A DNA stretch of 64,000 nt. Origin: a virus. Lineage: Duplodnaviria; Heunggongvirae; Uroviricota; Caudoviricetes. A program made the position numbers and the translations under genes. Location: IMG/VR virus record IMGVR_UViG_3300044858_003749; one strand, 5' to 3'. Below, piece after piece: positions 31,961-63,710 of the stretch; position 1 is the first letter of the stretch, and every line of letters begins with the position of its first letter. The notes under the pieces were generated by a model, which was not told the origin of the DNA, did no database searches, and saw only the letters and a program-made list of their open reading frames with translations.

Positions 31961-32305
31961 GTGAATAATTATTTTGTTCGTCGTCGGGTCGCATTGAATC
32001 CTAAAACATTACCAGAAATCTTAGAAGGTCTGGCTAATGATAAGGATTGGAGTGTTCGTATTGAGGTTGCAGAAAATTCCAACACACCACCAGAAACCTT
32101 AGAACGGCTGGCTGATGATGAGAGTTCTTTTGTTCGTAGCTGTGCTGTACGAAATCCCAACACACCACCAGAAACCTTAGCTCGTCTGGCTAATGATGAG
32201 GATTGGTATGTTCGTCTTGGGGTTGTAATTAATCCCAACACACCACAATACATTAGAACTTATCTTAAAATTAAAAAGCTTCTGAATTATTATGAGCAAT
32301 TATGA
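31961..32305 (+). CDS. LRV/HEAT-like repeat protein (family member A, 3 repeats)
   Basis: 26-aa repeats 'NPNTPPETLERLANDEDWYVR'. C-terminal cap 'NPNTPQYIRTYLKIKKLLNYYEQL'. Confidence 0.7.
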   Translation: MNNYFVRRRVALNPKTLPEILEGLANDKDWSVRIEVAENSNTPPETLERLADDESSFVRSCAVRNPNTPPETLARLANDEDWYVRLGVVINPNTPQYIRTYLKIKKLLNYYEQL

Positions 32306-32579
32306 GCTAGCGAGGAGTCGCAACACCACACCAGAAACATTAGAACGTCTGGCTAATGATGTGAATGCCACTGTTCGTTGTGAGGTTGCAGAAAATATCA
32401 ACACACCACAAGAAAGTTTAAAAAATCTGGCAAATGATAATAATCGGACTGTTGCGTATTATGCTAGAAATAATAAAAATTATAATAATCCAATGAAACT
32501 AGAGACCTTTGAGTTTTTTGAATGGGTGGAAAATGCAAGCATAGAAGATCTAGAGAACTTTGCAAATAAAGAATTGTGA
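32292..32579 (+). CDS. LRV/HEAT-like repeat protein (member B, 2 repeats, divergent C-terminus)
   Basis: Starts 'MSNYELA' and overlaps the stop of member A. Confidence 0.65.
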   Translation: MSNYELARSRNTTPETLERLANDVNATVRCEVAENINTPQESLKNLANDNNRTVAYYARNNKNYNNPMKLETFEFFEWVENASIEDLENFANKEL

Positions 32580-32929
32580 AAACTATTATTGCCGGATCAA
32601 GAAATTGTAATAACATAAAAGAATTAATAAAAGCTATTGAAGATTGTAATTGGGTAATAACAACAGTAATAAGTGGAAAAGCTAAGGGTGCTGATACATT
32701 AGGTGAATTGTGGGCCAAATATATGAAGGTTCCTATTATTGAATTTCCAGCCGATTGGAAAACTTATGGTAGATCCGCCGGCCCCCGTAGAAATATTCAA
32801 ATGGCAGATAATGCAGAAGCTCTTATTGCATTATGGGATGGTGAGAGTCGTGGAACAAAACACATGATAAGTGTAGCCGAAGAAAAACAACTATTGGTAC
32901 ACGTCCATAAATTCTGTTGTGACGGTTGA
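32576..32929 (+). CDS. SLOG-like (DprA/LOG/YspA-type Rossmann) small protein
   Basis: GTG start overlapping the stop of member B. Motif 'IAGSRNC...VISGKAKGADTLGELWAK...IALWDGESRGTKHM' resembles the SLOG/DUF2493 pattern. Confidence 0.45.
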   Translation: MKTIIAGSRNCNNIKELIKAIEDCNWVITTVISGKAKGADTLGELWAKYMKVPIIEFPADWKTYGRSAGPRRNIQMADNAEALIALWDGESRGTKHMISVAEEKQLLVHVHKFCCDG

Positions 32930-32998
32930 AAAACTGTCACTTCTTTTCGTTTGTGGGTGGTAATCGCTGTTATTCTATTCGGAGAGTTCACGAGAAGA

Positions 32999-33421
32999 AT
33001 GTTTTCTGAAGAAGATACTGCGCGATGTTGGGATGCACAAAATCCTAAAACCACACCAGAAACCTTAGATCGTCTGGCTAACGATAAGAGTAATCTGGTT
33101 CGTCGTAGGGTTGCAGAAAATCCCAATACACAATCAGAAACATTAGAACGTCTAGCTGATGACGACGATTATTGGGTTCGTTTTCGGGTTGCAATTAATC
33201 CCAACGCACCACCAGAAGCCTTAGAACGGCTGGCGAATGATAAGGATTCTTCTGTTCGTTGGTATATTGCAAGAAATCCTATCACACCACCAGAAGTTTT
33301 AGAACTTATGGCTAATGATAGGGATTGGGATGTTCGTTGGCAGGTTGCAAGAAATCCTAACACACCGCAATACATTATAACGTATCTTAAAATCAAGGAG
33401 TTTCTGAATTATTATGAGTAA
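32999..33421 (+). CDS. LRV/HEAT-like repeat protein (member C, 4 repeats)
   Basis: Repeats plus the 'PQYIITYLKIKEFLNYYE' cap. An alternative start is at 32951. Confidence 0.7.
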   Translation: MFSEEDTARCWDAQNPKTTPETLDRLANDKSNLVRRRVAENPNTQSETLERLADDDDYWVRFRVAINPNAPPEALERLANDKDSSVRWYIARNPITPPEVLELMANDRDWDVRWQVARNPNTPQYIITYLKIKEFLNYYE

Positions 33422-33731
33422 TTATGATCTAGCAAGAAATTCCAACACATTACCAGAAGCTTTAGATCGTCTGGCTAATGATAACGATTATTGGGTTCGT
33501 CAATATGTTGCATATAATCCATCCACGCCACCAGAAGCTTTAGAACGTCTGGCTAATGATAAGTATCCATGTATTCGTTGTGGGGTTGCATGGAATCCCA
33601 ACACACTACCAGAAATATTAGTTAATATGTCTAATGATAAGTATATTTATATTCGTAGCTGTGTTGCAAATAATCCCAGCACACCACAATACATTAGAAC
33701 ATATCTTAAACTCAACCAAAACAATTTTTGA
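33414..33731 (+). CDS. LRV/HEAT-like repeat protein (member D, 3 repeats)
   Basis: Starts 'MSNYDLA' and overlaps the 'YYE*' of member C. Confidence 0.7.
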   Translation: MSNYDLARNSNTLPEALDRLANDNDYWVRQYVAYNPSTPPEALERLANDKYPCIRCGVAWNPNTLPEILVNMSNDKYIYIRSCVANNPSTPQYIRTYLKLNQNNF

Positions 33732-33732
33732 C

Positions 33733-34986
33733 ATGTCTTTGAGCGCCATTAAACTCCGCCCACAACAGACCGAAGCTCTTGGTATTATGGAAGAGCATAA
33801 TAAAGTTCGGGTTATTGCTGCAACATCAGCGGGTAAGAGTTACATCATCTTCTTTGATATTCATAAGAAAGCGAAGAATAAAGAGAACTCTTTGTTTGTT
33901 ATCGTAAGCTCTCGTATTCTACTCCTTCAACAACTAGAGAAAGAATATTCTAAACTATTTGATAATACTCATATCGTTCATATGCACTCTGGAGAAGCCA
34001 AAAGCCGTAAGATTACAGATTATCTTGAGTTCAGTTATTGGGCAGAAGTCACCGAAGGACCTAAGATTGTTTTTGTAACTTATCATTCTCTTAAGAAGAT
34101 CGTTAAGAGTGAGATGAATATTGATGCTCTATATTTGGACGAATGCCACAATGGAGCTAAGAGTCACTTCTTTGAGTATATTAAAGGAGTTGAACCTTAT
34201 TGTAATAATCTTTACAGTTTCACCGCTGCTCCTCGTTATCATCCAGATCCTACAAAAAACGGTAACAACAACTCAGAAGTTTTTGGTAGTCAAGTTTATA
34301 ATGTTAATACTCTTGATTTGATCAAGAATGGTTCTATTCTTCCACCAAAATCCCAAACCATGAGAATTCCTTCCGTGCGGGATAAGAAGCAGAACCCTCA
34401 TGAGAGTGATTATTATACTCTTATGGACTATCTTTATAATAACGATAATACCGAGAGAGTTCTTATTACTTGCCCCTCTTCAAGATCACTTATGGATTTG
34501 ATTTGTCTTACTGATTTTTTGAAAGATTTGAATGATAGTGGTTATGATGTATTTCATATCACATCAAAATATGGTGCCTTCCATAATAAGACAAAGATTA
34601 AACGGTCAGAATTCTTGAATCGGATGGAAGAGTATGGGGAGCAAAATAAAAAATTTGTCGTTCTCCATTATAGTATCTTGACCGAAGGTTGGAGTAATAA
34701 TTCCATTCAGGCATCTATTCTCATGCGACAACAACAATTGGGTGCTACAATTCAAAATATTGGTAGGACACTACGGATTGGCCATTCAGATATTGATCGT
34801 ATTCAAAAAGGGGAGTTGACTGCTGGTGATTATGATAATTATGAAAAGCCCTGTGGTAACATAATCATTCCAGTATATGAGAACGTGGGTTCTAACATTG
34901 AAGAACAGGTAGATTTTGTTATTGACGAGGTTTTTACCAAAGGTAATTATGTTCACGATCTTATTAATGAGAAAAAGAAGTCATGA
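33733..34986 (+). CDS. SF2 DExH-box helicase / type III restriction Res-like ATPase
   Basis: Walker A 'AATSAGKS' and DECH box 'LYLDECHNGAKS'. It is inserted between LRV members D and E. Confidence 0.6.
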   Translation: MSLSAIKLRPQQTEALGIMEEHNKVRVIAATSAGKSYIIFFDIHKKAKNKENSLFVIVSSRILLLQQLEKEYSKLFDNTHIVHMHSGEAKSRKITDYLEFSYWAEVTEGPKIVFVTYHSLKKIVKSEMNIDALYLDECHNGAKSHFFEYIKGVEPYCNNLYSFTAAPRYHPDPTKNGNNNSEVFGSQVYNVNTLDLIKNGSILPPKSQTMRIPSVRDKKQNPHESDYYTLMDYLYNNDNTERVLITCPSSRSLMDLICLTDFLKDLNDSGYDVFHITSKYGAFHNKTKIKRSEFLNRMEEYGEQNKKFVVLHYSILTEGWSNNSIQASILMRQQQLGATIQNIGRTLRIGHSDIDRIQKGELTAGDYDNYEKPCGNIIIPVYENVGSNIEEQVDFVIDEVFTKGNYVHDLINEKKKS

Positions 34987-35327
34987 ATAATGAAGGATTG
35001 AAAATATTACAGGCGTCTAATACCAACACACCAACAGAAATCTTAGAACGTCTGGCTAATGATGGGGATTATTATGTTCGTTCTCGGGTTGCATCTAATC
35101 ACAACACATCACCAGAAACCTTAGAACGTCTGGCTAATGATGATTTTGTGGATGTTCTTTATTGGGTTGCAGAAAATCCCAACACTCCGTCAGAAATCTT
35201 AGAACGTTTGGCTAATGATGGTTCTTGGTTTGTTCGTTGTGGGGTTGCAAATAATCCCAATACACCTCAATACATTATAACATATCTTAAAATCAAGAAG
35301 TTTCTGAATTATTATGAGCAATTATAA
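34983..35327 (+). CDS. LRV/HEAT-like repeat protein (member E)
   Basis: ATGA overlap with the helicase stop. 3 repeats plus cap. Confidence 0.7.
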   Translation: MNNEGLKILQASNTNTPTEILERLANDGDYYVRSRVASNHNTSPETLERLANDDFVDVLYWVAENPNTPSEILERLANDGSWFVRCGVANNPNTPQYIITYLKIKKFLNYYEQL

Positions 35328-35862
35328 TCCCAACATATCACCAGAAACATTAGCTAGTCTGGCTAATAATGATTATGGGGTTGTTCGTTTTGGGGTTGCA
35401 ACAAATCCTAACACACCACCAGAAGCATTAGAACTTCTGGCGAATGATGATCATATTGATGTTCGTCGTGGGGTTGCAGTGAATCCCAACACACCACCAG
35501 AAACATTAGAACTTCTGGCTAATGATGAGAATGTTGGTGTTCGTGTGAGGGTTGCAGGAAATCTCAACACACTACCAGAAGCATTAGAACGTCTTGCTAA
35601 TGATGGCGATTATTATGTTCGTTATTGGGTTGCATCAATTACCAACACACCACCAAAAATATTAGTTATTATGGCTAACGATAAGCATTCTCATGTTCGT
35701 AGCTGTGTTGCATCTAATACCAATACACCACCAGAAGCCTTAGAACGTCTGGCTAATGATAATAATTGGCTTGTTCGTTGGCAGGTTGCATATAATCCCA
35801 ACACTCCCCAATACATTCTAACTTATCTTAAAATCAAGGAGTTTCTGAATTATTATGAGTAA
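35314..35862 (+). CDS. LRV/HEAT-like repeat protein (member F, 6 repeats)
   Basis: 182 aa of repeats plus cap. Its start overlaps the 'YYEQL*' of member E. Confidence 0.7.
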   Translation: MSNYNPNISPETLASLANNDYGVVRFGVATNPNTPPEALELLANDDHIDVRRGVAVNPNTPPETLELLANDENVGVRVRVAGNLNTLPEALERLANDGDYYVRYWVASITNTPPKILVIMANDKHSHVRSCVASNTNTPPEALERLANDNNWLVRWQVAYNPNTPQYILTYLKIKEFLNYYE

Positions 35863-35864
35863 TT

Positions 35865-36107
35865 ATGAGTAATTATGATCCCCACACATCAACAGAAACA
35901 TTAGATCGTCTGGCTAATGATGAAGATTTGGAAGTTCGTTGTCAGGTTGCACAAAATCCCAATACACCACCAGAAGCATTATCACGTCTGGCTGATGATA
36001 AGAGTTATTATGTTCGTTCTGGGGTTACATTTAATCCCAACACACCTCAATACATTCTAACTTATCTTAAAATCAAGAAGTTTCTGAATTATTATAAATT
36101 ATTATGA
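35865..36107 (+). CDS. LRV/HEAT-like repeat protein (member G, 2 repeats)
   Basis: Repeats plus cap. Confidence 0.7.
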   Translation: MSNYDPHTSTETLDRLANDEDLEVRCQVAQNPNTPPEALSRLADDKSYYVRSGVTFNPNTPQYILTYLKIKKFLNYYKLL

Positions 36108-36436
36108 CTAATTACGATATAGCAAAAAATCTCAATACATCAATAGAAACCTTAGAACGTCTGGCTAATGATGACGATTGTTGTGTTCGTTGTGGGGTTG
36201 CAGAAAATCCCAACACACCACCAGAAGCATTAGCACGTCTGGCGAATGATAATAGTTATTATGTTCGTGGCTGGGTTGCAAGAAATCCCAATACACCACC
36301 AGAAGCCTTAGAACGTCTGGCTAATGATAATAATTGGCTTGTTCGTTGGCAGGTTGCATTTAATCCCAACACCCCCCAATACATTCTAACTTATCTCAAA
36401 GTTAGACAGTTTCTGAGGTGTCACACTAGAACCTAA
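36104..36436 (+). CDS. LRV/HEAT-like repeat protein (member H, 3 repeats)
   Basis: Starts 'MTNYDIA'. Repeats plus a variant cap. Confidence 0.7.
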   Translation: MTNYDIAKNLNTSIETLERLANDDDCCVRCGVAENPNTPPEALARLANDNSYYVRGWVARNPNTPPEALERLANDNNWLVRWQVAFNPNTPQYILTYLKVRQFLRCHTRT

Positions 36437-36482
36437 AAACTCACAGGGGGTGCTATTATGGATTCATAATTCAGCTCAAACC

Positions 36483-37226
36483 ATGACCAATTACGTTTTT
36501 ATCGGAGACGTTCACTCTCAATTCTCCAAATTTTCCGCAGCGGTGGATTGGATTCAAAATAATGTGAAAGATTATCACATTATTCAAGGTGGTGATCTCT
36601 TTGATTCTAGGTCAGAGGAATCTAATTCTATGTTAGTTTATAATCTTGTTAAACTATTGGAGGATCGTATTACGGTTCTACATTCAAATCATCATATTAA
36701 ACTCTATAAGATTCTAACACAAGAAAATAATAACATGCAAAATCTGGAGAGTCTTCATAGGACTGTTATAGATTTTGATTTTGATAATAACAAAAGTCTG
36801 AAAGACGAGATCGTGAATTGGTTAGAAACCCTTCCTTACGGCGTCTCTTTTAAAGATCAGACGGGATTGGAATATAGGGCCTGCCATGCTTATTGGTTCA
36901 AAAAGCTTTATGTGCCGAATGAGTATGAAGGACTTTATCCCATTCATGAAGTTTCAGCAAAAGCCAAGGGGCAGATGTTGTATGGAATTAGCCGAAAAGG
37001 AGAAGACGGTGGAAATGAAAGGATTTTGTGGTGGAGTAATATCAATAATTCTTATTGTGGAGAGAAAGAAGAATTTGTAAGAGTTTCTTTTCATTATCAT
37101 ACAGTATCTTTGGATATTGAAGGAACTTCGGGACGAAAGCATCTGATTTTGGATGGATCTTGTGGTGACAAAGGTGGAGAATTGGTTGTCTATGATGTAA
37201 GCAATCATAGATGTGTCAGATTTTAA
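36483..37226 (+). CDS. calcineurin-like metallophosphoesterase (lambda-PPase / ApaH-like Ser/Thr phosphatase)
   Basis: Motifs 'GDVHS', 'GGDLFDSR' and 'LHSNHH' correspond to GDxHG, GDxxDRG and GNHE. Confidence 0.7.
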   Translation: MTNYVFIGDVHSQFSKFSAAVDWIQNNVKDYHIIQGGDLFDSRSEESNSMLVYNLVKLLEDRITVLHSNHHIKLYKILTQENNNMQNLESLHRTVIDFDFDNNKSLKDEIVNWLETLPYGVSFKDQTGLEYRACHAYWFKKLYVPNEYEGLYPIHEVSAKAKGQMLYGISRKGEDGGNERILWWSNINNSYCGEKEEFVRVSFHYHTVSLDIEGTSGRKHLILDGSCGDKGGELVVYDVSNHRCVRF

Positions 37227-39996: not shown

Positions 39997-40533
39997 TTGG
40001 CTATGTATGAAGATTATTCTAAAAAACAATTAGCTCTTCTGGCTAATGATAAACATTATTATGTTCGTTGTGGTGTTGCAAATAATCCCAACACACAACC
40101 AGAAACATTAGATCGTTTAGCGAACGATGAGCATCTGCATGTTCGTAGATATGTTGCACGAAATCCAAACACACCACCAGAAGCCTTAGATCGTCTGGCT
40201 AATGATGAGGATTCTTGGGTTCGTCTTGGGGTTGCAAGACATCCCAACACACCACCAGAAGTTTTAGAATGTTTGGCTAATGATAAGGATTATTCTGTTC
40301 GTTGTTGGGTTGCGAGAAATCCCAACACAACACCAGAAACCTTAGATCGTCTGGCTAATGATGAGCATTATTATGTTCGTACGCCGGTTGCATTTAATCC
40401 CAACACACCACCAAAAAGCTTAGAACGTCTGGCTAATGATGAGGATTGGTATGTTCGTTTTGGAGTTACAATAAATCCCAGCACACCTCAATACATTAAA
40501 ACCTATCTTAAAATTTTAAAATTATTCAAATGA
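39997..40533 (+). CDS. LRV/HEAT-like repeat protein (member I, 5 repeats)
   Basis: Repeats plus cap 'PQYIKTYLKILKLFK'. Confidence 0.7.
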   Translation: MAMYEDYSKKQLALLANDKHYYVRCGVANNPNTQPETLDRLANDEHLHVRRYVARNPNTPPEALDRLANDEDSWVRLGVARHPNTPPEVLECLANDKDYSVRCWVARNPNTTPETLDRLANDEHYYVRTPVAFNPNTPPKSLERLANDEDWYVRFGVTINPSTPQYIKTYLKILKLFK

Positions 40534-40737
40534 AACATTATAGCGTAGTTAGTGGGCCGGACTCTTTTGATACCGATTCCGTTGAAGAAGCCATTTCCGT
40601 TATGCAATCTATGGCAGAACATTTTGGTGGTGCTAAAGTTGTTGATAACACAACCAAAGAAATTATCTACGAAATCTAATAGACACATCCCGAACTGTCC
40701 ATTCAGACTCGTAGAGCCATTGGCTAGAGGATAAAAT

Positions 40738-41106
40738 ATGAGGAGTAAGGGTAACCCCATGAAAACTCTCAATGAAAAAGAACAAAAAGTTTTGCTTTTG
40801 GCTCTTAATCACCATCAAAAATACCATAATGACATTATCTCTCAATATTTTTTTGAGGATGATAAAAACTCGGTTGTATCGGAATCTTTTGAAAGTCTTG
40901 GGACAATTAACGATTTACACAATACTTTTTCGGGTGATTCAAATCTTCATCTTTTGAGATCAGGAGATTTAGAAAACATTGAAGCCGCTTTTACTCGTTC
41001 TGACGAGATTTATAATAATGGTGATAATGTAATCATGAAGGCCAGTCTTTATTTGGCTCTTATTGATACTATTAAGGCAATTCTGAGAAAAGATGATTGT
41101 ACTTGA
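40738..41106 (+). CDS. hypothetical protein
   Basis: 122-aa ORF. Confidence 0.35.
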   Translation: MRSKGNPMKTLNEKEQKVLLLALNHHQKYHNDIISQYFFEDDKNSVVSESFESLGTINDLHNTFSGDSNLHLLRSGDLENIEAAFTRSDEIYNNGDNVIMKASLYLALIDTIKAILRKDDCT

Positions 41107-41536
41107 ATCTTATTTGAAACCTCGCATTTTGGACCAAGCAATCGCTGTGGCTATGGTAAGTAACGGATCTAAAAGAATTGGTGCGATTCTTCTTAAAAAG
41201 AATAAGATTGTCGCGGCAGCCTGTAACAATTACGACAAATCAGATGCGTTTCAATTTAGGGCTTCCCAAAGAGCCTCTATCATATACAATAAACCAGAAT
41301 ATTCAAAACGTGTTTACGGGCACGCTGAAACCCTGGCTCTTAAAAAAATTAACGATGGTGACGCTGATACGATTGTAGTTTGCAGACTTTCTGGTAAACA
41401 CAATTCTAAAAAACTGAGATTGGCTAGACCATGTAGAATTTGTTCTCATCTTATTCAAAATTTCTACCCCTCAATTCGGTATATCCATTATTCCACCGAA
41501 AGAGGATTTTTCTACGAGACTTGGGGTCTTATCTAA
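41093..41536 (+). CDS. cytidine/deoxycytidylate-deaminase-fold zinc enzyme (dCMP deaminase or TadA-like)
   Basis: Zinc-binding signature 'HAE' followed by 'PCRICSHL' (PCxxC). Confidence 0.6.
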   Translation: MIVLESYLKPRILDQAIAVAMVSNGSKRIGAILLKKNKIVAAACNNYDKSDAFQFRASQRASIIYNKPEYSKRVYGHAETLALKKINDGDADTIVVCRLSGKHNSKKLRLARPCRICSHLIQNFYPSIRYIHYSTERGFFYETWGLI

Positions 41537-41802
41537 TGAAAAAACTTTCTCTTAAAGAAACTCACACTCTTTTGAAGAAATACAATCATGTTATTTTTGA
41601 CGAAGAAACCTCTGGGTTAAATTCAAAACTTAATGACGATGGGTTAATTATTACGTTAAAAAGTGGTAACAATAAGAGTGTTATGTTGTTTCCCCATGAA
41701 AAAAATGAGTCTGTTGAGATCACTAAAACCACAGTAACTCTTTATGATAGTATGGGTTGGGTTCATAATTTCATCCCCCTTATGAATGCCGACTTGATTT
41801 GA
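41536..41802 (+). CDS. hypothetical protein
   Basis: ATG overlapping the deaminase stop (track ORF 41440..41802). Confidence 0.35.
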   Translation: MKKLSLKETHTLLKKYNHVIFDEETSGLNSKLNDDGLIITLKSGNNKSVMLFPHEKNESVEITKTTVTLYDSMGWVHNFIPLMNADLI

Positions 41803-41808
41803 ATTATT

Positions 41809-42135
41809 ATGAGTAATTATGAGCTAGCGAGGAGACGTAACACTCCACCAGAAGCATTATCACGTCTGGCTAATGATAAGGATTCTTATGTTCGTCGTGG
41901 GGTTGCATGGAATCCCAAGACCCCTCTAGAAACCTTAGATCGTCTGGCTAATGATAAGGATTCTTGGGTTCGTGGTGAGGTTGCATTTAATCCCAACACA
42001 CCACCAGAAGTTTTAGAACGTCTGGCTAATGACGAGTATCGGTATGTTCGTCGTTTGGTTGCCAAAAATCCCAACACGCCACAATACATTAGAACATATC
42101 TTAAAATTACCGAGGTTTTGAATTATTATGAGTAA
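41809..42135 (+). CDS. LRV/HEAT-like repeat protein (member J)
   Basis: Starts 'MSNYELARRRNTPPE'. 3 repeats plus cap. Confidence 0.7.
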   Translation: MSNYELARRRNTPPEALSRLANDKDSYVRRGVAWNPKTPLETLDRLANDKDSWVRGEVAFNPNTPPEVLERLANDEYRYVRRLVAKNPNTPQYIRTYLKITEVLNYYE

Positions 42136-42454
42136 TTATGAGCTAGCAGATAATCCCAACACCCCACCAGAAACATTAGAAAGTCTAGCGAATGACGATA
42201 ATTGGTATGTTCGTAGCTGTGTGGCATTTAATCCCAACACACCACCAGAAGCTTTAGAACGTCTGGCTGATGATGAGGATTTAAATGTTCGTTATTATGT
42301 TGCAAGAAATCCCAACACATTACCAGAAACCTTAGCTCGTCTGGCTAAGGATGAGGATTGTCGTGTTCGTCGTTGGGTTGCAAGAAATCCTAACACACCA
42401 CAATACATCAAAGATTATCTTAAAATCAAGGGGTTTTTGGGTTGTTATGAGTAA
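42128..42454 (+). CDS. LRV/HEAT-like repeat protein (member K)
   Basis: Overlaps the 'YYE*' of member J. 3 repeats. Confidence 0.7.
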   Translation: MSNYELADNPNTPPETLESLANDDNWYVRSCVAFNPNTPPEALERLADDEDLNVRYYVARNPNTLPETLARLAKDEDCRVRRWVARNPNTPQYIKDYLKIKGFLGCYE

Positions 42455-42626
42455 TATTGAACTAGCAGGAAATCCCAACACACCACCAGAAACCTTAGAT
42501 CTTCTGGCTAATGATAATATTTGGAATGTTCGTTATTTGGTTGCAAAAAATCCCAACACTCCACAATACATTAGAACATACCTTAAACTTCAAAGGACGA
42601 TTGGTGGACTGTCCACAAGAAGTTGA
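42447..42626 (+). CDS. LRV/HEAT-like repeat protein (member L, single repeat, 59 aa)
   Basis: Starts 'MSNIELAGNPNTPPETLD'. ATG at 42447 (track ORF 42351..42626). Confidence 0.55.
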   Translation: MSNIELAGNPNTPPETLDLLANDNIWNVRYLVAKNPNTPQYIRTYLKLQRTIGGLSTRS

Positions 42627-46131: not shown

Positions 46132-46749
46132 ATGAATTACACCGAAGAACAAGTTAAAGAAATCGTCAGAAATGTCATTTCTGAGATGCAATCTGTAAAT
46201 GTTAAGGATCTTACACTTTACCAAAAAAGGGGTGTTGCAAGAAATCCCAATACAGCACCAGAAGTCTTAGACCGTCTGGCTAATGATAAGGATTCTTATG
46301 TTCGTTGGCAGGTTGCAGAAAATCCCAACACACCACCAGAGACCTTAGAACGTCTGGCTAATGATGACGATTATTGTGTTCGTTGGAGTGTTGCATTTAA
46401 TCCCAACACACCACCAGAAACATTAGCTCGTCTAGCTAATGATGTGGATTATTGTGTTCGTACGCCGGTTGCATTTAATCCCAACACACCACCAGAAGTT
46501 TTAGAACGTCTGGCTAATGATAACGATTCTGTGGTTCGTTATTATGTTGCAAGAAATCCCAACACATTAACAGAAACTTTAGAACGTTTGGCTAATGATA
46601 AGAGTTCTTCTGTTCGTGAATGTGTTGTACAAAATCCTAACTACAAACGGAAATCCAACAATAAGATCACTATTGAGCTTACAGAAGAACAGTTGTCTCA
46701 ATTACGAAAATGTGCAGACATGTTCTCTGGTCTTTTAGGATCTGTATAA
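46132..46749 (+). CDS. LRV/HEAT-like repeat protein (member M, 5 repeats, distinct N- and C-termini)
   Basis: Repeats 'NPNTPPETLERLANDDDYCVRWSVAF'. The C-terminus 'NPNYKRK...' is shared with member N. Confidence 0.7.
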   Translation: MNYTEEQVKEIVRNVISEMQSVNVKDLTLYQKRGVARNPNTAPEVLDRLANDKDSYVRWQVAENPNTPPETLERLANDDDYCVRWSVAFNPNTPPETLARLANDVDYCVRTPVAFNPNTPPEVLERLANDNDSVVRYYVARNPNTLTETLERLANDKSSSVRECVVQNPNYKRKSNNKITIELTEEQLSQLRKCADMFSGLLGSV

Positions 46750-55701: not shown

Positions 55702-56760
55702 ATGAAAAAATACGATGCGGTGGTTTTCATCGGCAGGTTTCAACCTTTCCATAACGCTCATTTTGATATTATCAAAAAAGCTTATGAGCTAACTGATTAT
55801 GTAATTCTTATCGCGGGTTCTCAGTATCAACCACCTAGCTATAAGAATCCATTTCAGGCTTTAACTTTTGACGGTTATTTTGATTCAATTGGAAAAACCA
55901 TTGATAATTATCTTAGAGTTAACTTTGAGGATTATTATGACGAAGACCGTAACTATGAGTTCTCGTTTTGTTTTCAACGAGATATTTACGGTGATAATCT
56001 CTGGTGCAAAAGTGTACAGGAAAAAGTATCAGAATTATTCTTAGGTCAAGAAGCTGAAATAGCCATTATTGGTTGTAATAAGGATGAAAGTTCTTATTAC
56101 TTAAATATGTTCCCTCAGTGGGATCTTATTGAGGTTCCTCTGGATCAAAACCTTAGTGCTACACAGATCAGAGAACTTTATTTCGTTGAAGAACCAAATA
56201 TGAGTTTTCTTCAAGGTGTTGTATCGTCTGAGGTTTTTAATTATCTTGACGAACACAAAAATACCGAATGGCACAATAATATCGTAAACGAACGAAATTT
56301 TATTGAAAAATACAAAGCCCAATATGCTTCTTTCCCATATCCACCAACATTCGTTACTGTAGATTCTGTAGTATTTCAATCCGGTCATGTTCTCGTTGTT
56401 CGGAGAAATGCTTATCCTGGTAAAGGTCTTATTGCTCTTCCTGGTGGATTCTTAGACGCTAATAGTGATGCCTCTTTGGAAGATGCTATGATTAGAGAAC
56501 TGAGAGAGGAAACAGGGCTTAAAGTGCCAACTCCGGTTCTCAAGGGATCTATTAAAGATGTTAAAGTTTTTGATTCTCTTTATAGAAGCTCTCGTGGACG
56601 GACTATTACTCATGCTCATAACATTGTATTGTCTGATGGAGAACTACCTAGAGTCAAAGGTGATTCTGATGCTGATAAGGCTTTCTGGTTACCATTCAGC
56701 CAACTTAAATCAGAGCAATTTTTTGAAGACCATTATCAAATTATCAATTATTTTCTATGA
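55702..56760 (+). CDS. natV: bifunctional NMN adenylyltransferase / Nudix hydrolase (NatV-type)
   Basis: N-terminal nucleotidyltransferase 'GRFQPFHNAH' (HxGH-type). C-terminal Nudix box 'GGFLDANSDASLEDAMIRELREETGL'. Confidence 0.8.
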   Translation: MKKYDAVVFIGRFQPFHNAHFDIIKKAYELTDYVILIAGSQYQPPSYKNPFQALTFDGYFDSIGKTIDNYLRVNFEDYYDEDRNYEFSFCFQRDIYGDNLWCKSVQEKVSELFLGQEAEIAIIGCNKDESSYYLNMFPQWDLIEVPLDQNLSATQIRELYFVEEPNMSFLQGVVSSEVFNYLDEHKNTEWHNNIVNERNFIEKYKAQYASFPYPPTFVTVDSVVFQSGHVLVVRRNAYPGKGLIALPGGFLDANSDASLEDAMIRELREETGLKVPTPVLKGSIKDVKVFDSLYRSSRGRTITHAHNIVLSDGELPRVKGDSDADKAFWLPFSQLKSEQFFEDHYQIINYFL

Positions 56761-56957
56761 TTATGAATCAAGTGCAACTGAGTAAAATGTCAAGAGAAGA
56801 AAAACTTAAGGCATTGGCTTTAATTGATAAAAACATTGAGACAACAAAACTTAAATTAAGCCAATTACATCATGAAGCCTATAAGTTGCAATATGAATTA
56901 GGTTATTACGCTAAAAAAGAAATCCTTTATGGAATTAAATATGATGTTCAAAATTAA
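56757..56957 (+). CDS. hypothetical small protein
   Basis: 66-aa ORF. Confidence 0.3.
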   Translation: MIMNQVQLSKMSREEKLKALALIDKNIETTKLKLSQLHHEAYKLQYELGYYAKKEILYGIKYDVQN

Positions 56958-57477
56958 TAAAAATCGAAACTTCCTAGAAGACTATAAGAAATATTATTTC
57001 TTTTATGATACTCCATTGTCAAATTGGGCAGGTTATTCTTTTGTTGATACAACAACTGGAGTTTCTTACAATTGCTCAGAACAGTTTATGATGCACAAGA
57101 AGGCCCTACTTTTTTCTGATTATAATACTGCCGGCAAGATCATGAATAAAGAATACCCAGGAGATCAAAAAGCCTTGGGTAGAATGGTGGCAGGCTTTGA
57201 TGTTAGCATTTGGAATGAATATGCAAGAGATCTTGTGTATGAAGGATGTTATTATAAGTTTACCCAAAATAAGGAAGCTTATGAATATCTTATGGGGACA
57301 GAAGGTTATCTTCTAGTAGAGGCATCACCAACAGATACTATTTGGGGTATTGGACTTGGAGGTTATGATGCAGATAATCAAGATCCTAAAAATTGGAGAG
57401 GAACTAACTGGTTGGGTGAAGTTCTTACACAACTACGAGAAGATTTGAAAGATAACCCAGAGTTAGTTTTATTCTAG
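56929..57477 (+). CDS. NADAR domain protein (YbiA-like, DUF1768)
   Basis: 'SNWAGYSF...YNCSEQFMMHKKALLF...TIWGIGLGG...NWRGTNWLGEVL' follows the NADAR pattern. Confidence 0.6.
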   Translation: MELNMMFKINKNRNFLEDYKKYYFFYDTPLSNWAGYSFVDTTTGVSYNCSEQFMMHKKALLFSDYNTAGKIMNKEYPGDQKALGRMVAGFDVSIWNEYARDLVYEGCYYKFTQNKEAYEYLMGTEGYLLVEASPTDTIWGIGLGGYDADNQDPKNWRGTNWLGEVLTQLREDLKDNPELVLF

Positions 57478-57501
57478 TCAGATGTAAAGACTTTAAAACA
57501 T

Positions 57502-57524
57502 AATTCAACGATAGACGTTGAATT
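57502..57524 (+). promoter_or_regulatory. perfect 9-bp hairpin upstream of nadV
   Basis: AATTCAACG, loop ATAGA, CGTTGAATT. It lies 30 nt upstream of the nadV RBS. Confidence 0.3.
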
Positions 57525-57553
57525 TTATCCACTATCATTTTAAGGAGTTTAAA

Positions 57554-59869
57554 ATGGACAACATTATTCTTTCTGCTGATTCTTACAAATACTCTCAGTT
57601 CAATCAATATCCTCCACAAACAGAGGGTGTTTATTCTTACATTGAGAGTCGCGGTGGTGGAGAAGAAGTTCTCTTTATGGGTCTTCAGATCTATCTTAAG
57701 GAATATCTATCTCGTCCCATTCGCATGGAAGATATTGACGAAGCAGAGGAACTTATTCTCGCTCACGGAGAACCTTTTTATCGTGGCGGGTGGGAATACA
57801 TCGTTAAGAAGCATGGTGGTTATCTACCCGTAAGAGTAAAAGCCGTTCCAGAAGGAATGGTGATTCCAACGAAAAATGTTTTGGTTACGATTGAGAATAC
57901 AGATCCAAACTGCTATTGGCTGACAAGTTTTCTAGAGACAAGTCTTCTTCGGCATGTTTGGTTTCCAACAACGGTTGCGACGAATTCTTATAACATCAAG
58001 AAGCTTATTTTGAGTTACTTGATTCGTAATGGAGATCCCAATACGATTGATTATAAGCTACATGACTTTGCATTTCGAGGTGTGTCTTCTTCTGAATCTG
58101 CCGGAATCGGTGGTATTGCACACCTTGTTAATTTCAAGGGAACTGATACAGTTGCCGCTCTTCGTTATGGTAGAAAATATTATAACGAAAAAATGGCAGG
58201 CTACTCGGTCCCAGCTTCAGAACATGGTGGAATCACGAGTTGGGGTAAAGAAAACGAAGTAGCGGCATATAGAAATATGCTTAATCATTATGCTAAGCCT
58301 GGTGCTATCGTCGCTTGTGTAAGTGACAGTTATGACATTTATAACGCTTGCGATAAGCTCTGGGGTGAGGAGTTAAAGGATGAAGTTATTGCTTCTGGTG
58401 CTACTCTGACGGTCAGGCCGGATTGTTATGATGATCAAACTAAGATTTTAACTCCTAGTGGGTGGAAATTATTTTGTGAATTATCGGAAAACGATCTGGT
58501 TGCCCAGGTTAATCCCGATAAAACTTATGAATTTGTCAAACCTCTTGAAATTATTAATGAATATTATGAAGGAGAAATGTATCAAATTCGGGATTTTCAC
58601 GGAAAAATTGATCTCTTAGTCACTCCTAATCATAGATTAGTGGTTGTAGATAGAGCTGGTGAACTTATAGTAAAAGAAGCCAAAGATTATAACCCAAAAA
58701 ATTTGAATTACCGAAAACTTCGTTCGGCTAAGGCCAAAACTTTTGGGAAAAATTTAACCTGGCACGAAAGACTATTAATCGCATTACAGGCTGATGGTAC
58801 TATTAGAAAAACGACCTCCAATAAGACGAGTATTGAATTCAATTTTCAAAAAGAGCGAAAGCATAATAGATTATTAAATATTCTTAATAATTTAAATTAT
58901 GAGTATAGTGTCTTTTATAGTGAGTCTAGGGAGGGCCAATCAATTATAACCGTGTCAATACCATTGGGTGAAATTGTTTCTAAAACATTTGATTGGGTTG
59001 ATATTTCAAACTTGGATAGTCAATGGTGTGAGCAATTTATAGATGAATTAAAACATTGGGATTCTTCTATTAGAAATAGTGGAAGATTTAAATATGATAC
59101 TACAGTTAAATTTAACATAGACGTAGTAGAATATATTGCCATTTCTTCAGGGAAAGGGATTTTAATTTCCGTCGCCGAAGATAATAGACAATCTTATTAT
59201 TCTGATGTTTATACTGCACATATATTGGATAATCCTTATTCTGGTGGTCAGACCATAACCAAAACAAAAGTTAATTATAAAGGAAGTGTACATTGTGTTA
59301 AAGTTCCGAGTGGTATGGTTTTAGTTAAAAGACACCGGGGAGTTTCTGTTTCTGGAAATTCTGGAGAACCTGTAGAAGTGAATCTTAAGTGTGCTCAAAT
59401 TCTTGAAAGTCATTATGGATCTACCGTAAACTCTAAAGGATTTAAGGTACTCAATAACGTCAAGCTCATTCAGGGTGATGGTGTTAATTATGAAACTGTA
59501 GATCGGGTTCTTCATGTACTTGAATCTAACGGATATAGTAGTGATAACATTGGTTTCGGAATGGGTGGCGCCCTGCTCCAGGCTGTTACTCGTGATGATT
59601 ACAAATTTGCCATGAAGTGTAGTGCGGTTAATGTGGCTGGAAATTGGAGGGATGTTTACAAGGATCCTATTACAGATCCAGGTAAAACATCTAAGAAAGG
59701 TCGTCTGAATCTGATTCATACCGATAATGGTTACGAAACGGTTCCTGAACGCCCATGGAATAAAGATGTTCTTGAGGTTGTTTATGAGAATGGAGAACTT
59801 CTAAAGGATTATACTTTGGAAGAAATCCGAGTGAACGCAAATCGGTGTATTCATAATTACTTCGCATAA
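57554..59869 (+). CDS. nadV: nicotinamide phosphoribosyltransferase (NadV/NAMPT) interrupted by an intein
   Basis: RBS AAGGAG. The exteins are continuous across 'ATLTVRPD | SGEPVEV', the conserved NAMPT RPDSG site. The 312-aa insert is described in the next entry. Confidence 0.8.
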   Translation: MDNIILSADSYKYSQFNQYPPQTEGVYSYIESRGGGEEVLFMGLQIYLKEYLSRPIRMEDIDEAEELILAHGEPFYRGGWEYIVKKHGGYLPVRVKAVPEGMVIPTKNVLVTIENTDPNCYWLTSFLETSLLRHVWFPTTVATNSYNIKKLILSYLIRNGDPNTIDYKLHDFAFRGVSSSESAGIGGIAHLVNFKGTDTVAALRYGRKYYNEKMAGYSVPASEHGGITSWGKENEVAAYRNMLNHYAKPGAIVACVSDSYDIYNACDKLWGEELKDEVIASGATLTVRPDCYDDQTKILTPSGWKLFCELSENDLVAQVNPDKTYEFVKPLEIINEYYEGEMYQIRDFHGKIDLLVTPNHRLVVVDRAGELIVKEAKDYNPKNLNYRKLRSAKAKTFGKNLTWHERLLIALQADGTIRKTTSNKTSIEFNFQKERKHNRLLNILNNLNYEYSVFYSESREGQSIITVSIPLGEIVSKTFDWVDISNLDSQWCEQFIDELKHWDSSIRNSGRFKYDTTVKFNIDVVEYIAISSGKGILISVAEDNRQSYYSDVYTAHILDNPYSGGQTITKTKVNYKGSVHCVKVPSGMVLVKRHRGVSVSGNSGEPVEVNLKCAQILESHYGSTVNSKGFKVLNNVKLIQGDGVNYETVDRVLHVLESNGYSSDNIGFGMGGALLQAVTRDDYKFAMKCSAVNVAGNWRDVYKDPITDPGKTSKKGRLNLIHTDNGYETVPERPWNKDVLEVVYENGELLKDYTLEEIRVNANRCIHNYFA
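58424..59359 (+). mobile_element. intein (312 aa) with LAGLIDADG-like homing endonuclease domain inside nadV
   Basis: Starts with Cys ('CYDDQTKILT') and has block B 'LVTPNH'. It ends '...SVSGN' with a +1 Ser. An internal 'LLIALQADGTI' is LAGLIDADG-like. Confidence 0.6.
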
Positions 59870-59954
59870 GGAGTGTGCCAGCCTAAAAACTGGCACTTTC
59901 TTTTTACGGTCGTCACATAAGGCATCTATAGTTGTTTGGTCAGACTCTCTTTTT

Positions 59955-60431
59955 ATGAAACGTCCTCAGGTAAAAACCTCTACGTTTAAGGAAATTCGTC
60001 CAATCACAAAATTGGATGATATTCCACGTATAAAGCAATTTAATTTTTTTCATAAAAAAGGAGTAAAATGTGTTAAATGTGGTTGTGAGGGAAAGTTTAT
60101 TGTTAAAGATAACCTTAATAGACGCAAAATTTGTACAGAAAATTACATTAGTTTGAGTAGGGATCATATTATTCCAATCTCTAAAGGTGGGTCCAACGTA
60201 ATAAAAAATATGCAGACGATGTGTGAATATTGTAATGGTTTAAAGGGTACCATGAATAATGAGATTTTTATGTCTATACCAAATTTCTTTTTAGACGATG
60301 CTTTTAAATGTGACCGGAGCAAAAGTTTTAAAGTGTTTATTCTTCTATTAAGAGTTATGGCAAAATTTTATAGGACTAAAACCAGGATTTACTCAAGAAT
60401 GAAAAATCTGCACTCACAAACTCTAACCTAA
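59955..60431 (+). CDS. HNH homing endonuclease
   Basis: 'KCVKCGC...DHIIPISKGGSNVIKNMQTMCEYCNGLKG' is an HNH motif with Cys pairs. It is free-standing between nadV and cysS. Confidence 0.65.
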   Translation: MKRPQVKTSTFKEIRPITKLDDIPRIKQFNFFHKKGVKCVKCGCEGKFIVKDNLNRRKICTENYISLSRDHIIPISKGGSNVIKNMQTMCEYCNGLKGTMNNEIFMSIPNFFLDDAFKCDRSKSFKVFILLLRVMAKFYRTKTRIYSRMKNLHSQTLT

Positions 60432-60452
60432 AAGTAACAATTCTTAACCGTT

Positions 60453-60731
60453 ATGATCAAACTGAATGAAATCACCGTCAAGGTTACGTTTAACATTAAC
60501 AAATATATTGATTATTGTTGGGACCAAAGAATCATACCATCGCAAGATAATTATAGAGAGTGGGTTATTCAGCAAATGTCTGATTGTAGTGAAGACGAAC
60601 TCAAAGTTACCTACTCTAAAAAGCAGCAAATCTTTAATAACAATAAGGTGGAATTTGTTTGTTTGAATGACAAATTGGCTAAAAGGCTAAAGCGGGGCCA
60701 CCAATTATTCAAGAAAAAAATGGAAAGATAA
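60453..60731 (+). CDS. hypothetical protein
   Basis: 92-aa ORF. Confidence 0.3.
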   Translation: MIKLNEITVKVTFNINKYIDYCWDQRIIPSQDNYREWVIQQMSDCSEDELKVTYSKKQQIFNNNKVEFVCLNDKLAKRLKRGHQLFKKKMER

Positions 60732-60886
60732 AACTCTATGGTGAATTTTTTGAGCCTATACTTAATTCCACTGACACACAAATAGGAGTGGTTGTTCAGA
60801 ATAAAAAAAGCGAATCCTTGAGGCATCATTGGGATTTAGATAAAATCTTTATTCTAAAAAGTTCTATTAAACCCTGAGCCATAACT

Positions 60887-62236
60887 ATGTCATTGTTTCT
60901 AACAGATACTCTAACAAAAGAAAAAAGGGAATTCGTTCCACTAGAAAATAACACTGTCAACATATACTCCTGTGGTGTGACCGTTTATGATCTAACACAC
61001 TTTGGTCATGCTCGCAGTTTTATAGTTTGGGATGTTCTTCGTAGACACCTAAAATGGCTTGGATATGCTGTTAAATTTGTTCAGAACTATACCGATATTG
61101 ATGATAAAATTATTGCAAAAGCCAATGAACAGAATCAAACAATCAAAGAAATAACAGAAAAGTACATTAACGAGTATGAGAAAGATATGACCTTTCTTAA
61201 TGTTATGTTGCCGGATAAGATGCCTAGAGCCACAGATCATTTATCCGAAATTCGCAGTATGATTAAAACTCTAGAATCTAAAGGTGCTGCATATACTTTA
61301 GATGGTAGTGTTTATTTTTCTGTTAATACTCATGAGAATTATGGTAGATTATCTGGAAGAATTTTAGACAATCAAAAAGATAACTCAGGTGAATTTCTTA
61401 AAAAGAATTCTTTTGATTTCGCATTATGGAAAGCTTCTAAACCAGGTGAACCGAGTTATTCTTCTTATTGGGGAAATGGTAGACCGGGATGGCATATAGA
61501 ATGTTCGGCGATGATCTGGAAGGAATTTGGAAAGACTATTGATATCCATCTTGGGGGTTCTGATCTGATTTTTCCACATCATGAGAATGAAATAGCCCAA
61601 ACTGAAGTTGCAACAGAAAATCAATTATCTCGTTGGTGGTTACATTCTGGAATGGTAATGGTTGATGGTAAAAAAATGAGCAAGTCTCTAGGAAACTTTA
61701 CAACCATTCGGTCCTTACAAGAATCAGGATTTAGTCCAATGGCCATAAGGCTTTTCGTATTACAGGGGCATTATCGCAAACCTCTTGATTTTACGGAAAA
61801 TGCTTTAAAAATGGCAACGAATTCCTGGAATAAATTAAATGAAGTTTTGTTGTTAAAATCTTCAAAAGAAACTACCGAAATTGATTTTGATGATAAGCTA
61901 AGATCTTATCACAATAATTTTATAGATGCTCTTAACGACGATCTCAATACTTCTCTTGCAATCTCAGTTCTTTTTGTTTTGGTTAAAGAAATAAGAGTGA
62001 ATAACTCAGACTCTTATATTTTACTTTTGTGCGAATTATCAGCAATTCTTGGTCTTTTTGGAGAGCAAAAGTCCAATATAAGCGAATCAGAAATTTTAGA
62101 ACAAATTGAATTAAGAAATTCAGCAAGAAAAGAAAAGAATTTTACTCTTGCGGATGAGATCAGAGAAAAATTATTAACTTCTGGTGTTAAACTTGAAGAT
62201 ACAAAAGACGGAACTAGTTTTAATTTTATTGTGTGA
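60887..62236 (+). CDS. cysS: cysteinyl-tRNA synthetase (class I)
   Basis: HIGH motif 'HFGHARSF' and KMSKS motif 'KMSKSLGN'. Zinc ligands 'CGVTVYD' and 'HIECSAM'. Confidence 0.85.
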   Translation: MSLFLTDTLTKEKREFVPLENNTVNIYSCGVTVYDLTHFGHARSFIVWDVLRRHLKWLGYAVKFVQNYTDIDDKIIAKANEQNQTIKEITEKYINEYEKDMTFLNVMLPDKMPRATDHLSEIRSMIKTLESKGAAYTLDGSVYFSVNTHENYGRLSGRILDNQKDNSGEFLKKNSFDFALWKASKPGEPSYSSYWGNGRPGWHIECSAMIWKEFGKTIDIHLGGSDLIFPHHENEIAQTEVATENQLSRWWLHSGMVMVDGKKMSKSLGNFTTIRSLQESGFSPMAIRLFVLQGHYRKPLDFTENALKMATNSWNKLNEVLLLKSSKETTEIDFDDKLRSYHNNFIDALNDDLNTSLAISVLFVLVKEIRVNNSDSYILLLCELSAILGLFGEQKSNISESEILEQIELRNSARKEKNFTLADEIREKLLTSGVKLEDTKDGTSFNFIV

Positions 62237-62311
62237 CAATAATCAAACTGGCACACAAAACATCTAAAGGCTTCTGAATTGTGTTAAGATTGAAACTTAA
62301 AGGAAAGAATT

Positions 62312-63264: not shown

Positions 63265-63681
63265 ATGCTTATTGATGATTCGTTTATTTACATTCTTAAA
63301 AGCGATGCGAGGAAAATAGTCGCTCAAATTATTACAGTTCCTGAAGTTTTAGCTCGTTTAGCTAAGGATAATAATTCTAATGTTCGTTGTCATGTTGCAT
63401 GGAATCGCAACACACCACCAGAAGCATTAGAACGTCTGGTTAATGATGATGATGATTGGGTTCGTTATTATGTTGCACAAAATCCCAACACATCAACAGA
63501 AACCTTAGAACGTTTGGCTAATGATAGGAGTTCTTCTGTTCGTGCGAATGCTACATGTAATCCCAATTATAAAAAACCTAACACCATTCATTTCACAAAT
63601 GATCAAATGGTAGCACTAAAATCTTTGATTGAAAGTGCTAGTAACCCACATCTTCAGGAATTTCTTAAAAATGCTGATTGA
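63265..63681 (+). CDS. LRV/HEAT-like repeat protein (member N, 3 repeats)
   Basis: RBS AAAGGAG. The C-terminus 'NPNYKKPN...' is shared with member M. Confidence 0.7.
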   Translation: MLIDDSFIYILKSDARKIVAQIITVPEVLARLAKDNNSNVRCHVAWNRNTPPEALERLVNDDDDWVRYYVAQNPNTSTETLERLANDRSSSVRANATCNPNYKKPNTIHFTNDQMVALKSLIESASNPHLQEFLKNAD

Positions 63682-63710
63682 CCTTTCAGATGGAATTTTT
63701 AACCATAGAT

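Follow-up and report, generated by a model that had tools for sequence, protein, structure and literature searches.

In prokaryotes, genes overlap most often by 4, 1 or 8 nt, and among longer overlaps those in phase 1 (8, 11 and 14 nt) dominate (PMC10666635). Translational coupling of such neighbours depends on no more than the final 15 nt of the upstream gene and fades within about 20 nt (PMC10666635); 8-nt overlaps are less efficient than those of 4 or 1 nt (PMC6728339; follow-up PMC10666635). By geometry, a coupled pair is co-directional; its genes overlap by 1, 4 or 8 nt, or by more in phase 1, or stand no more than about 10 nt apart (PMC10666635).

Genes that stand in series with a recurring boundary element are also known from integrons, whose cassettes are short and promoterless and which are characterized by attC sites and an integrase. 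Poxvirus "genomic accordions", reportedly described by Elde and co-workers in 2012, are said to be tandem arrays in which unequal homologous recombination raises and lowers copy number. LRV repeat proteins (Pfam PF01816) are represented by the Azotobacter vinelandii protein of known structure (1LRV), and our literature search returned no description of LRV expansions in phages or cyanophages. Here we describe a virus in which LRV genes follow each other in arrays and are connected by one reiterated stop/start joint. This joint looks like a further case of overlapping genes with translational coupling, a known class, and is mechanistically ordinary.

The window, by which we mean the whole stretch of 64,000 nt analysed here (IMG/VR record IMGVR_UViG_3300044858_003749), has a GC content of 36% and carries genes for tail-fibre-like proteins, a CysRS and NAD salvage as well as two tRNAs. 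Of its annotated relatives, the freshwater jumbo Synechococcus phages B3 and B23 come nearest, with 64% identity in a DUF2828 protein. A megablast search found no DNA-level relative among annotated phages, and B3 and B23 are absent from the tblastn matches of LRV gene F (E ≤ 1e-5). The virus looks like a large, jumbo-cyanophage-like one. Two contigs, L030 and L016, are 99.4-99.97% identical to the ends of the window, prolong it on both sides and carry additional LRV genes in their extensions.

Between 31.9 and 42.7 kb, 12 short genes match the LRV profile well above threshold; all ten proteins tested score from 28.7 to 132 bits (E-values 1e-6 to 1e-39), the Pfam gathering cut-off being 21.6 bits. 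They are arranged in four arrays (A-B, C-D, E-F-G-H and J-K-L) and one solitary gene, I (Table 1). With additional LRV genes at 46.1 kb and from 63.3 kb on, the window holds at least 15. The genes inspected next to the arrays are those of YAcAr, a helicase, a phosphatase and a deaminase. A PHROGs search of the LRV genes returned only phrog_20647, to which no function is assigned, PADLOC gave no meaningful match for them, and neither F nor G had an exact protein match on record.

Table 1. Positions of the LRV arrays, the joints between their genes and the crossover sites (numbering of the window)
Feature	Position	Strand	Description
LRV array 1	31961..32579	+	genes A (31961-32305) and B (32292-32579); A and B overlap
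A/B joint	32280..32305	+	TTCTGAATTATTATGAGCAATTATGA, 14-nt overlap; A ends ...LNYYEQL*, B starts MSNYEL at 32292
LRV array 2	32999..33731	+	genes C (probable start 32999, end 33421) and D (33414-33731)
C/D joint	33398..33427	+	canonical 8-nt overlap ATGAGTAA; D starts at 33414
LRV array 3	34983..36436	+	genes E, F, G and H; helicase on one side, phosphatase on the other
E/F joint	35302..35327	+	14-nt overlap, backup stop TAA; F starts at 35314
Left crossover site of the 724-nt deletion	35482..35502	+	exact 21-nt NPNTPPE repeat core within F
F/G joint	35843..35878	+	three 10-nt units; F stop TAA at 35860-35862, G starts at 35865, 2-nt gap
Mini-ORF MSNYE* in F/G joint	35855-35872	+	its TAA overlaps the ATG of G in the 8-nt manner
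G/H joint	36082..36117	+	diverged, 10-nt-expanded form with 4-nt ATGA overlap; H starts at 36104
Right crossover site of the 724-nt deletion	36206..36226	+	identical 21-nt core within H
Solitary LRV gene I	40003..40533	+	own head MYEDYSKKQ, own tail ..KILKLFK*, without joint
Orphan half-joint 5' of J	41798..41828	+	eighth copy; 31 nt identical to the J/K joint
LRV array 4	41809..42626	+	genes J, K and L
J/K joint	42117..42147	+	8-nt overlap; K starts at 42128
K/L joint	42436..42460	+	diverged (..FLGCYE* / MSNIEL), 8-nt overlap; L starts at 42447

The encoded proteins are short solenoids of 60-190 aa with 2-6 repeats, and cassette lengths increase in steps of 26 aa. The AlphaFold (AF2) model of J (pLDDT 96.4) has 8 helices, including one at residues 3-8 (NYELAR) and a single long C-terminal helix at residues 92-107 (PQYIRTYLKITEVLNYY); model confidence falls to 84 across the last 8 residues. 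Its best match in the PDB is 1LRV (42% identity, rmsd 2.2 A); designed alphaRep binders come next. On this model, the phage proteins are predicted to be genuine LRV solenoids, right-handed and built of alternating helices like 1LRV. They belong to the same repeat family and fold as the A. vinelandii protein, but are much shorter, lack an Fe-S domain and are closed at their ends by dedicated N- and C-caps; each genome encodes many paralogs. In the 44 repeat units of the window, scaffold codons are 0.84-1.00 conserved, third positions included, and positions 16-19, 22, 23 and 26 are hypervariable (2.1-3.5 bits); clustering of hypervariable positions is a trait shared with alphaRep libraries.

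The earlier note had listed seven boundaries (A/B, C/D, E/F, F/G, G/H, J/K and K/L) at which consecutive LRV genes were said to be joined by a conserved, overlapping stop/start motif. All seven exist where they had been placed, and the motif, AATTATTATGAGYAATTATGA, is present at each of them, far above chance (9 matches in the window at up to 3 mismatches, against 0.02 expected from shuffles). In the canonical joint, the upstream TAT GAG TAA holds the downstream ATG AGT AA, which gives an overlap of 8 nt. This form (ATGAGTAA) is found at C/D, J/K and K/L, the upstream gene ending ...AAT TAT TAT GAG TAA. An embedded or overlapping start is indeed the rule at most joints, but the arrangement is less uniform than had been claimed, with overlaps of 8, 14 or 4 nt and none at F/G. 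At A/B and E/F the overlap is 14 nt because the TAA became CAA; the upstream frame extends by two codons, and the downstream AAT TAT GA/AA supplies its TGA or TAA stop. The F/G and G/H joints each contain one extra 10-nt unit, ATTATGAKTA, and therefore F/G has a 2-nt gap and a mini-ORF, and G/H an ATGA overlap. As these two joints align gap-free to each other (27/32 in the core), they represent two diverged copies of one expanded joint, which indicates that joints are copied along with cassettes.

The junction had also been described as a short direct repeat. Two copies are present, although the exact repeat had to be corrected to 8 nt (ATTATGAG), with a period of 10 nt. The mirroring of the protein end (NYYE) and the protein start (SNYE) is likewise real: the +1 offset of the two genes, combined with the 10-nt spacing of the repeat, puts both ATTATGAG copies in the same reading phase. 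The eighth copy, an orphan half-joint, lies in front of J, whose upstream neighbour is an unrelated, non-LRV gene of 88 aa with its TGA inside this half-joint. The start MTNY of the phosphatase, which the earlier note had connected with the joint, does not belong here. Orthologs in phages without adjacent LRV genes begin MTNYVFIGD or MSNYVFIGD, and the resemblance is, judging from these orthologs, an ancestral coincidence.

Identical joints are found in near-identical and related phage contigs (L016, L030, L001 and L003). The head MSN[YF][DE]LA.NPNTPPE and the tail NPNTPQYIxxYLKIKxFLN[YCR]YE are common to a large metagenomic family: among the 120 best homologs, the PQYI cap is present in 76, the head in 35, the xY[E/D] end in 35 and the extended YEQL-type end in 7. 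An exact search of IMG/VR for the joint gave 0 matches and a degenerate one 5 loci, of which only that in L030 is genuine. The joint is absent from the 185,579 bacterial and archaeal species-representative genomes of GTDB, where all 40 pattern matches lack LRV context and are due to chance. In L020, whose helicase is 71% identical, LRV paralogs have other termini (start MNKLEQARDPNTPP..., end ...HYIKKYLKIQxQLxxL*) and are connected by plain ATGA overlaps. Three divergent HEAT/LRV-like genes occupy the array site in a relative at 70%, relatives at 65-68% have zero LRV genes at the array sites, and the site between helicase and phosphatase holds from 0 to 4 LRV genes across related phages. These differing termini and absent genes indicate that the arrays are lineage-specific accessory insertions between conserved core genes.

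Variation of the arrays can be followed among strain-level contigs, retrieved via the helicase located between D and E. Four of them (L017, L019, L074 and L075) are 100% identical to the window; L074 and L075 had been suggested by gene calls as variants in the J region and were rejected as such on this identity. A 34.7-kb contig from a third sample has gene sizes as in the window. L018 is 98.5-98.8% identical to the window and lacks 724 nt. It tracks F perfectly up to the shared 21-nt AATCCCAACACACCACCAGAA and H perfectly from there, the product being an in-frame F/H chimera of 132 aa, with G and two joints gone. Array variation occurs between strains that are 98.5-100% identical elsewhere. 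Had the joint been the site of exchange, indels should start and end in it; the sole strain-level structural variant found, L018, breaks in the repeat core instead. For the passive origin of the joints discussed below, the choice of crossover site, core or joint, rests on this one strain-level variant.

Comparison of paralogs adds to this picture. Mosaic homologs combine the head of A with the tail of J (P0026) and the head of J with the tail of K (P0023). Blocks of similarity between paralogous junctions mostly cross the ATG and do not end there (52+47, 61+27 and 31+45 nt). The heads of first genes are unrelated (VNNYF.., MFSEEDTARCW.., MNNEGLKILQ.., MYEDYSKKQ..), and so are the tails of last genes (..FANKEL, ..LKLNQNNF, ..FLRCHTRT, ..QRTIGGLSTRS, ..KILKLFK). 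Distinct heads and tails at array ends are exactly the product of unequal crossovers in gene bodies, by which internal joints multiply and ends stay. No co-inheritance between 66-nt tails and heads emerged from a Mantel test (r=-0.18, p=0.91), which is confounded by head indels. As seen in L018 against the window, a single variant, the tandem arrays appear to behave like sequences evolving by unequal homologous recombination.

In this they resemble poxvirus accordions: copy number varies between near-identical strains, breakpoints lie in homologous sequence and accessory genes are placed between conserved core genes. Unlike in accordions, the phage crossovers are intragenic, at an in-frame 78-nt repeat, and yield chimeric proteins besides changes in copy number. 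With integron cassettes the arrays share short promoterless genes in series and a recurring boundary element. Unlike attC, the joint has neither an imperfect inverted repeat nor a conserved hairpin, the observed rearrangement is homologous and not site-specific, and no integrase was identified among the inspected flanking genes. Lacking an attC-like hairpin and any sign of site-specific recombination, the system does not look integron-like.

Conservation at the nucleotide level had been put forward as a touchstone, synonymous positions that differ freely speaking against a special role of the joint. We compared 16 non-identical joint-type tails, for which the cap codons (NPNTPQYIxTYLKIK) carried by these genes served as internal control. 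At face value synonymous sites do not differ freely. The comparison is nevertheless uninformative, as scaffold codons are equally fixed throughout the family. The entire tail consists of fixed and often rare codons: CCC is used in 10 of 15 tails (genome frequency 0.11), AAC in 13 of 16 (0.24), TAC in 14 of 16 (0.19) and ATC in 11 of 15 (0.17). In pairwise comparison, synonymous codon identity amounts to 0.74 for the control cap columns and 0.80 (pooled; mean 0.87) for the four joint codons that the overlap leaves unconstrained, a level that 6% of 4-column control subsets reach as well. Because the whole cap and every 78-nt repeat are equally fixed, codon fixation in the joint is no evidence of a special role; it points to concerted evolution of the whole family. 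In D, a 7-nt patch at hypervariable codons differs between two strains within 2 kb of otherwise identical DNA, which is consistent with gene conversion.

The proposal that the joint couples translation stands as far as geometry goes: overlaps of 8, 14 and 4 nt fit, and coupling is plausible. Distances between stop and start are -14, -8, -4 or +2 nt at all 7 joints of the window and at 8 more in relatives, and the window joints show the co-directional arrangement and the overlap or gap classes of coupled pairs (PMC10666635). Like known termination-reinitiation pairs (Huber et al. 2019, PMC6728339; PMC10666635), they are co-directional, with overlaps of 8, 14 or 4 nt or a 2-nt gap, and the start lies inside the last 15 nt of the upstream gene, where a Shine-Dalgarno (SD) motif is unnecessary. 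Unlike in those pairs, one 21-nt version with a 10-nt internal period is reiterated here across a family of paralogs, and coupling is read from geometry. All ..xY[E/G/K] tails in our data set have an overlapping next start, and four of these starts belong to non-LRV genes (L001 5245, L016 3338, L030 9090 and L030 5822). Tails without the motif are separated from the next gene by spacers of +1 to +199 nt. As the last 7-10 residues are kept only where the next gene begins inside them, this distribution argues that the tail segment would be retained chiefly because translation of the next gene initiates there.

Three further scans bear on expression of the arrays. A consensus scan found no terminator-like sites inside them. 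An SD core at a spacing of 4-10 nt precedes none of the 7 internal starts, compared with 8 of 26 other genes of the phage; since SD motifs are rare in this phage generally, their lack is weak evidence for coupling. No consistent RNA structure was found across 8 joints (z = -2.8, 0.3, -2.5, -1.1, 0.5, 0.0, -0.6 and 0.3). Given the geometry of the joints, termination-reinitiation coupling is the most likely mechanism and the best supported one.

We consider it probable that the joint is an ordinary translational-coupling overlap, passively copied as arrays recombine within their repeats. After terminating on the upstream gene, a ribosome would start again at the ATG, which lies at a distance of 8 nt (or 14, 4 or -2 nt), and co-transcribed cassettes would be translated serially without SD motifs, the downstream AAT TAT GAx serving as a backup stop (TGA or TAA) for the upstream frame. 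Arrays would expand and shrink by unequal homologous recombination between 78-nt LRV repeats with the core AATCCCAACACACCACCAGAA. Each in-frame crossover would create a chimeric gene and duplicate or delete the internal joint with it, leaving the head of the first gene and the tail of the last gene untouched, so that all copies of the joint may have a passive origin. Nucleotide uniformity would follow from the coding of the joint in two frames, in which start and stop must persist, and from concerted evolution of the whole family by gene conversion, which would fix synonymous sites in the joint and in every repeat alike.

A more active part for the joint was envisaged in the earlier note, which saw in it a recombination module for gain and loss of cassettes. 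In its developed form, the joint and the preceding cap would be a selected cassette adaptor; homologous recombination between joints would add, remove and shuffle whole cassettes, and the embedded ATG and the TAA would ensure translation of anything landing downstream. A role for the joint in REARRANGEMENT is favoured by exact identities of tail plus joint that reach 26-39 nt, among the longest between paralogs; being longer than most core matches, they make the joint a competent recombination substrate. At least one expansion of the 10-nt internal repeat has left both ORFs intact, unrelated genes begin at the ATG embedded in an LRV tail (three of the four starts named above, L001 5245, L030 9090 and L030 5822), and LRV cassette content between helicase and phosphatase varies from 0 to 4 among related phages. 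Ahead of J, the first gene of its array, lie 11 nt identical to the J/K joint but no LRV gene, and ahead of L030c, also first in its block, about 24 nt of ...KLKFLNRYE* without an LRV body. The L030c remnant, however, stops inside the cap and not at the motif, and part of the upstream flank of J is orthologous to L020 sequence at the same site, which leaves both cases ambiguous. Joint remnants upstream of two first-in-block genes are not predicted by pure body crossover. The only mapped strain indel is a crossover in the repeat core that made a chimera, not a cassette-precise loss, and the blocks of similarity that usually cross the ATG also tell against a module. Synonymous sites of the joint are no more fixed than the remainder of the LRV family, and the plain ATGA overlaps between the quite different termini of L020 (71% helicase identity) indicate that no particular joint sequence is needed. 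We hold an adaptor of this kind to be unlikely. Its more far-reaching version, in which the block of cap, joint and head would be a selected self-similar adaptor of a recombination-driven library of small LRV binders in a jumbo phage, is quite unlikely. If it were true, repeat-core crossovers would reshuffle specificity and joint crossovers or slippage would add or drop cassettes; the embedded ATG, the TAA and the backup TGA would keep the products and foreign genes translated without a ribosome-binding site of their own, and the whole would amount to an accordion- or integron-like system without an integrase.

The remaining explanations place the reason for the joint in the protein, in decoding or in transcription. 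MSNYEL and ..FLNYYE could be kept simply as N- and C-terminal capping helices of the solenoid, the overlap being incidental to compaction; the two terminal helices in the model of J and its closeness to 1LRV agree with this. Last genes, however, keep PQYIxxYLK and swap the final 7-10 residues (B, D, H, I, L and 5 more in L001 and L016), so that the ..FLNxYE segment appears dispensable for folding. It is kept exactly where another gene begins inside it, and the drop in model confidence for J falls on these very residues, which makes constraint on the protein alone decidedly improbable. It is scarcely credible that programmed frameshifting or readthrough at the joint yields fused multi-cassette LRV proteins, even though the stop lies in an A/U-rich repetitive tract and, by sequence reasoning, loss of one 10-nt unit would join neighbours in frame (..FLNYELA..). 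No single frameshift fits, since five joints are offset by +1 and the other two, F/G and G/H, by +2; there is no slippery heptamer, and RNA structure is inconsistent between joints (z from -2.8 to +0.5). No internal PQYI cap occurs in the 120 homologs or in any of the loci, and about 76 of the 120 are stand-alone capped proteins. For the same lack of any fused form, a slippage switch between fused and split genes, operated by the 10-nt unit, was rejected. An internal promoter in each joint (TTAAAA, 17 nt, TATTAT), from which cassettes would be transcribed individually, is suggested by an identical 9/12 sigma-70-like match at six junctions, and has a very slim chance of being real. A consensus scan shows no enrichment of promoter-like matches in the region (51 against 41±6 in shuffles), the hexamers are simply YLKI and NYY codons of an AT-rich gene, and the -10 hexamer overlaps the ATG, so that transcription would begin 3' of the start codon.

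Read as a passively copied coupling overlap, the joint offers a clean natural case of a short stop/start overlap that spreads through a gene family and tolerates slippage. Of greater interest are the strain-variable arrays of small capped LRV proteins, with their invariant scaffold codons and hypervariable surface positions, in freshwater jumbo cyanophage-like viruses. If these proteins bind host or defence proteins, the arrays would be a means of recombination-driven diversification, and the joint would keep the new chimeras expressed.

Between the genes for the SF2 helicase and the metallophosphatase lies a hotspot. This gap holds four LRV genes in the window, two in the close strain L018, and two on the related phage contig L020 that are different from those of the window; on contig L078 it is occupied by three divergent HEAT/LRV-like genes. 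When the gap was compared across relatives, no LRV genes were found in L026-28 or L076-77.

In proteins of the gene B type, the PQYI cap gives way to a C-terminal domain that is conserved but not of LRV type (..NNPMKLETFEFFEW.ENASIEDLE.FA...), and B (95 aa) and its homologs (121 aa) differ by one entire repeat unit. Just left of the window, the near-identical contig L030 encodes a 422-aa protein whose N-terminal 300 residues are unrelated and which carries three LRV repeats at its C-terminal end; in this phage the repeat module thus also occurs in fusion with other domains.

Coordinates of the features discussed (window, unless a contig is named)
Feature	Position	Strand	Remarks
Gene B	32292-32579		homologs P0061, P0083, P0099
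Scored LRV units	31961-36436, 40003-42626, 46132-46749, 63265-64000		26-aa units, n=44
SF2 helicase-metallophosphatase gap	34986-36483		compared with L018, L020 11269-12396, L026 11266-11321, L076 9254-9325, L078 3871-5044
Gene D strain differences	33642-33659 and 33701		aligned with L018 285-344
422-aa LRV-containing protein	L030 3637-4905	minus	
Sigma-70-like matches	32265-32293, 33387-33415, 35287-35315, 35828-35856, 36067-36095, 42101-42129		at joints
Antisense ORFs	31969-32253, 33169-33396, 40059-40250, 41886-42089	minus	opposite LRV genes
tRNA-Met	48960		
tRNA-Pro	55560		
Auxiliary gene block	55702-63187		jumbo-phage type; Pfam labels from near-identical contig

Two further features recur along the LRV genes. 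A sigma-70-like promoter match (TTAAAA, 17 nt, TATTAT; 9 of 12 positions) is present at each joint, the conserved stop/start junction between consecutive genes, and its hexamers are the codons of YLKI and NYY. Because the ATG is partly covered by the -10 hexamer, and overall there is no enrichment of promoter-like matches, those at the joints are probably meaningless. Long minus-strand ORFs of 63-94 aa (MYCGVLGF...RRSKVSGGVLGF...) repeatedly face LRV genes; most likely these ORFs simply result from the codon composition of the repeats and are not genes. Elsewhere in the window lies a block with a Nudix/NMNAT-like gene, NADAR, NAMPT, HNH endonuclease, cysteinyl-tRNA synthetase and DNA ligase, all named by transfer of Pfam labels. 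Such an auxiliary set is typical of jumbo phages.

In gene D, seven of the eight differences between the window and L018 fall within 18 nt, the strains being otherwise identical over ~2 kb. Four hypervariable residues are altered (NDKYIYIRSC in the window, NDKHSYVRYC in L018), and the L018 version resembles paralogs elsewhere, for example L001 2487 (2 mismatches in 30). The patch is probably a short gene-conversion tract.

Across the scored units, scaffold codons are near-invariant, third positions included. The hypervariable residues, at 2.1-3.5 bits, are 16-19, 22, 23 and 26. Designed alphaRep binder libraries show a similar pattern of invariant scaffold and hypervariable residues. This combination of fixed codons and variable residues suggests that the scaffold undergoes concerted evolution and that a putative binding surface is under diversifying selection.
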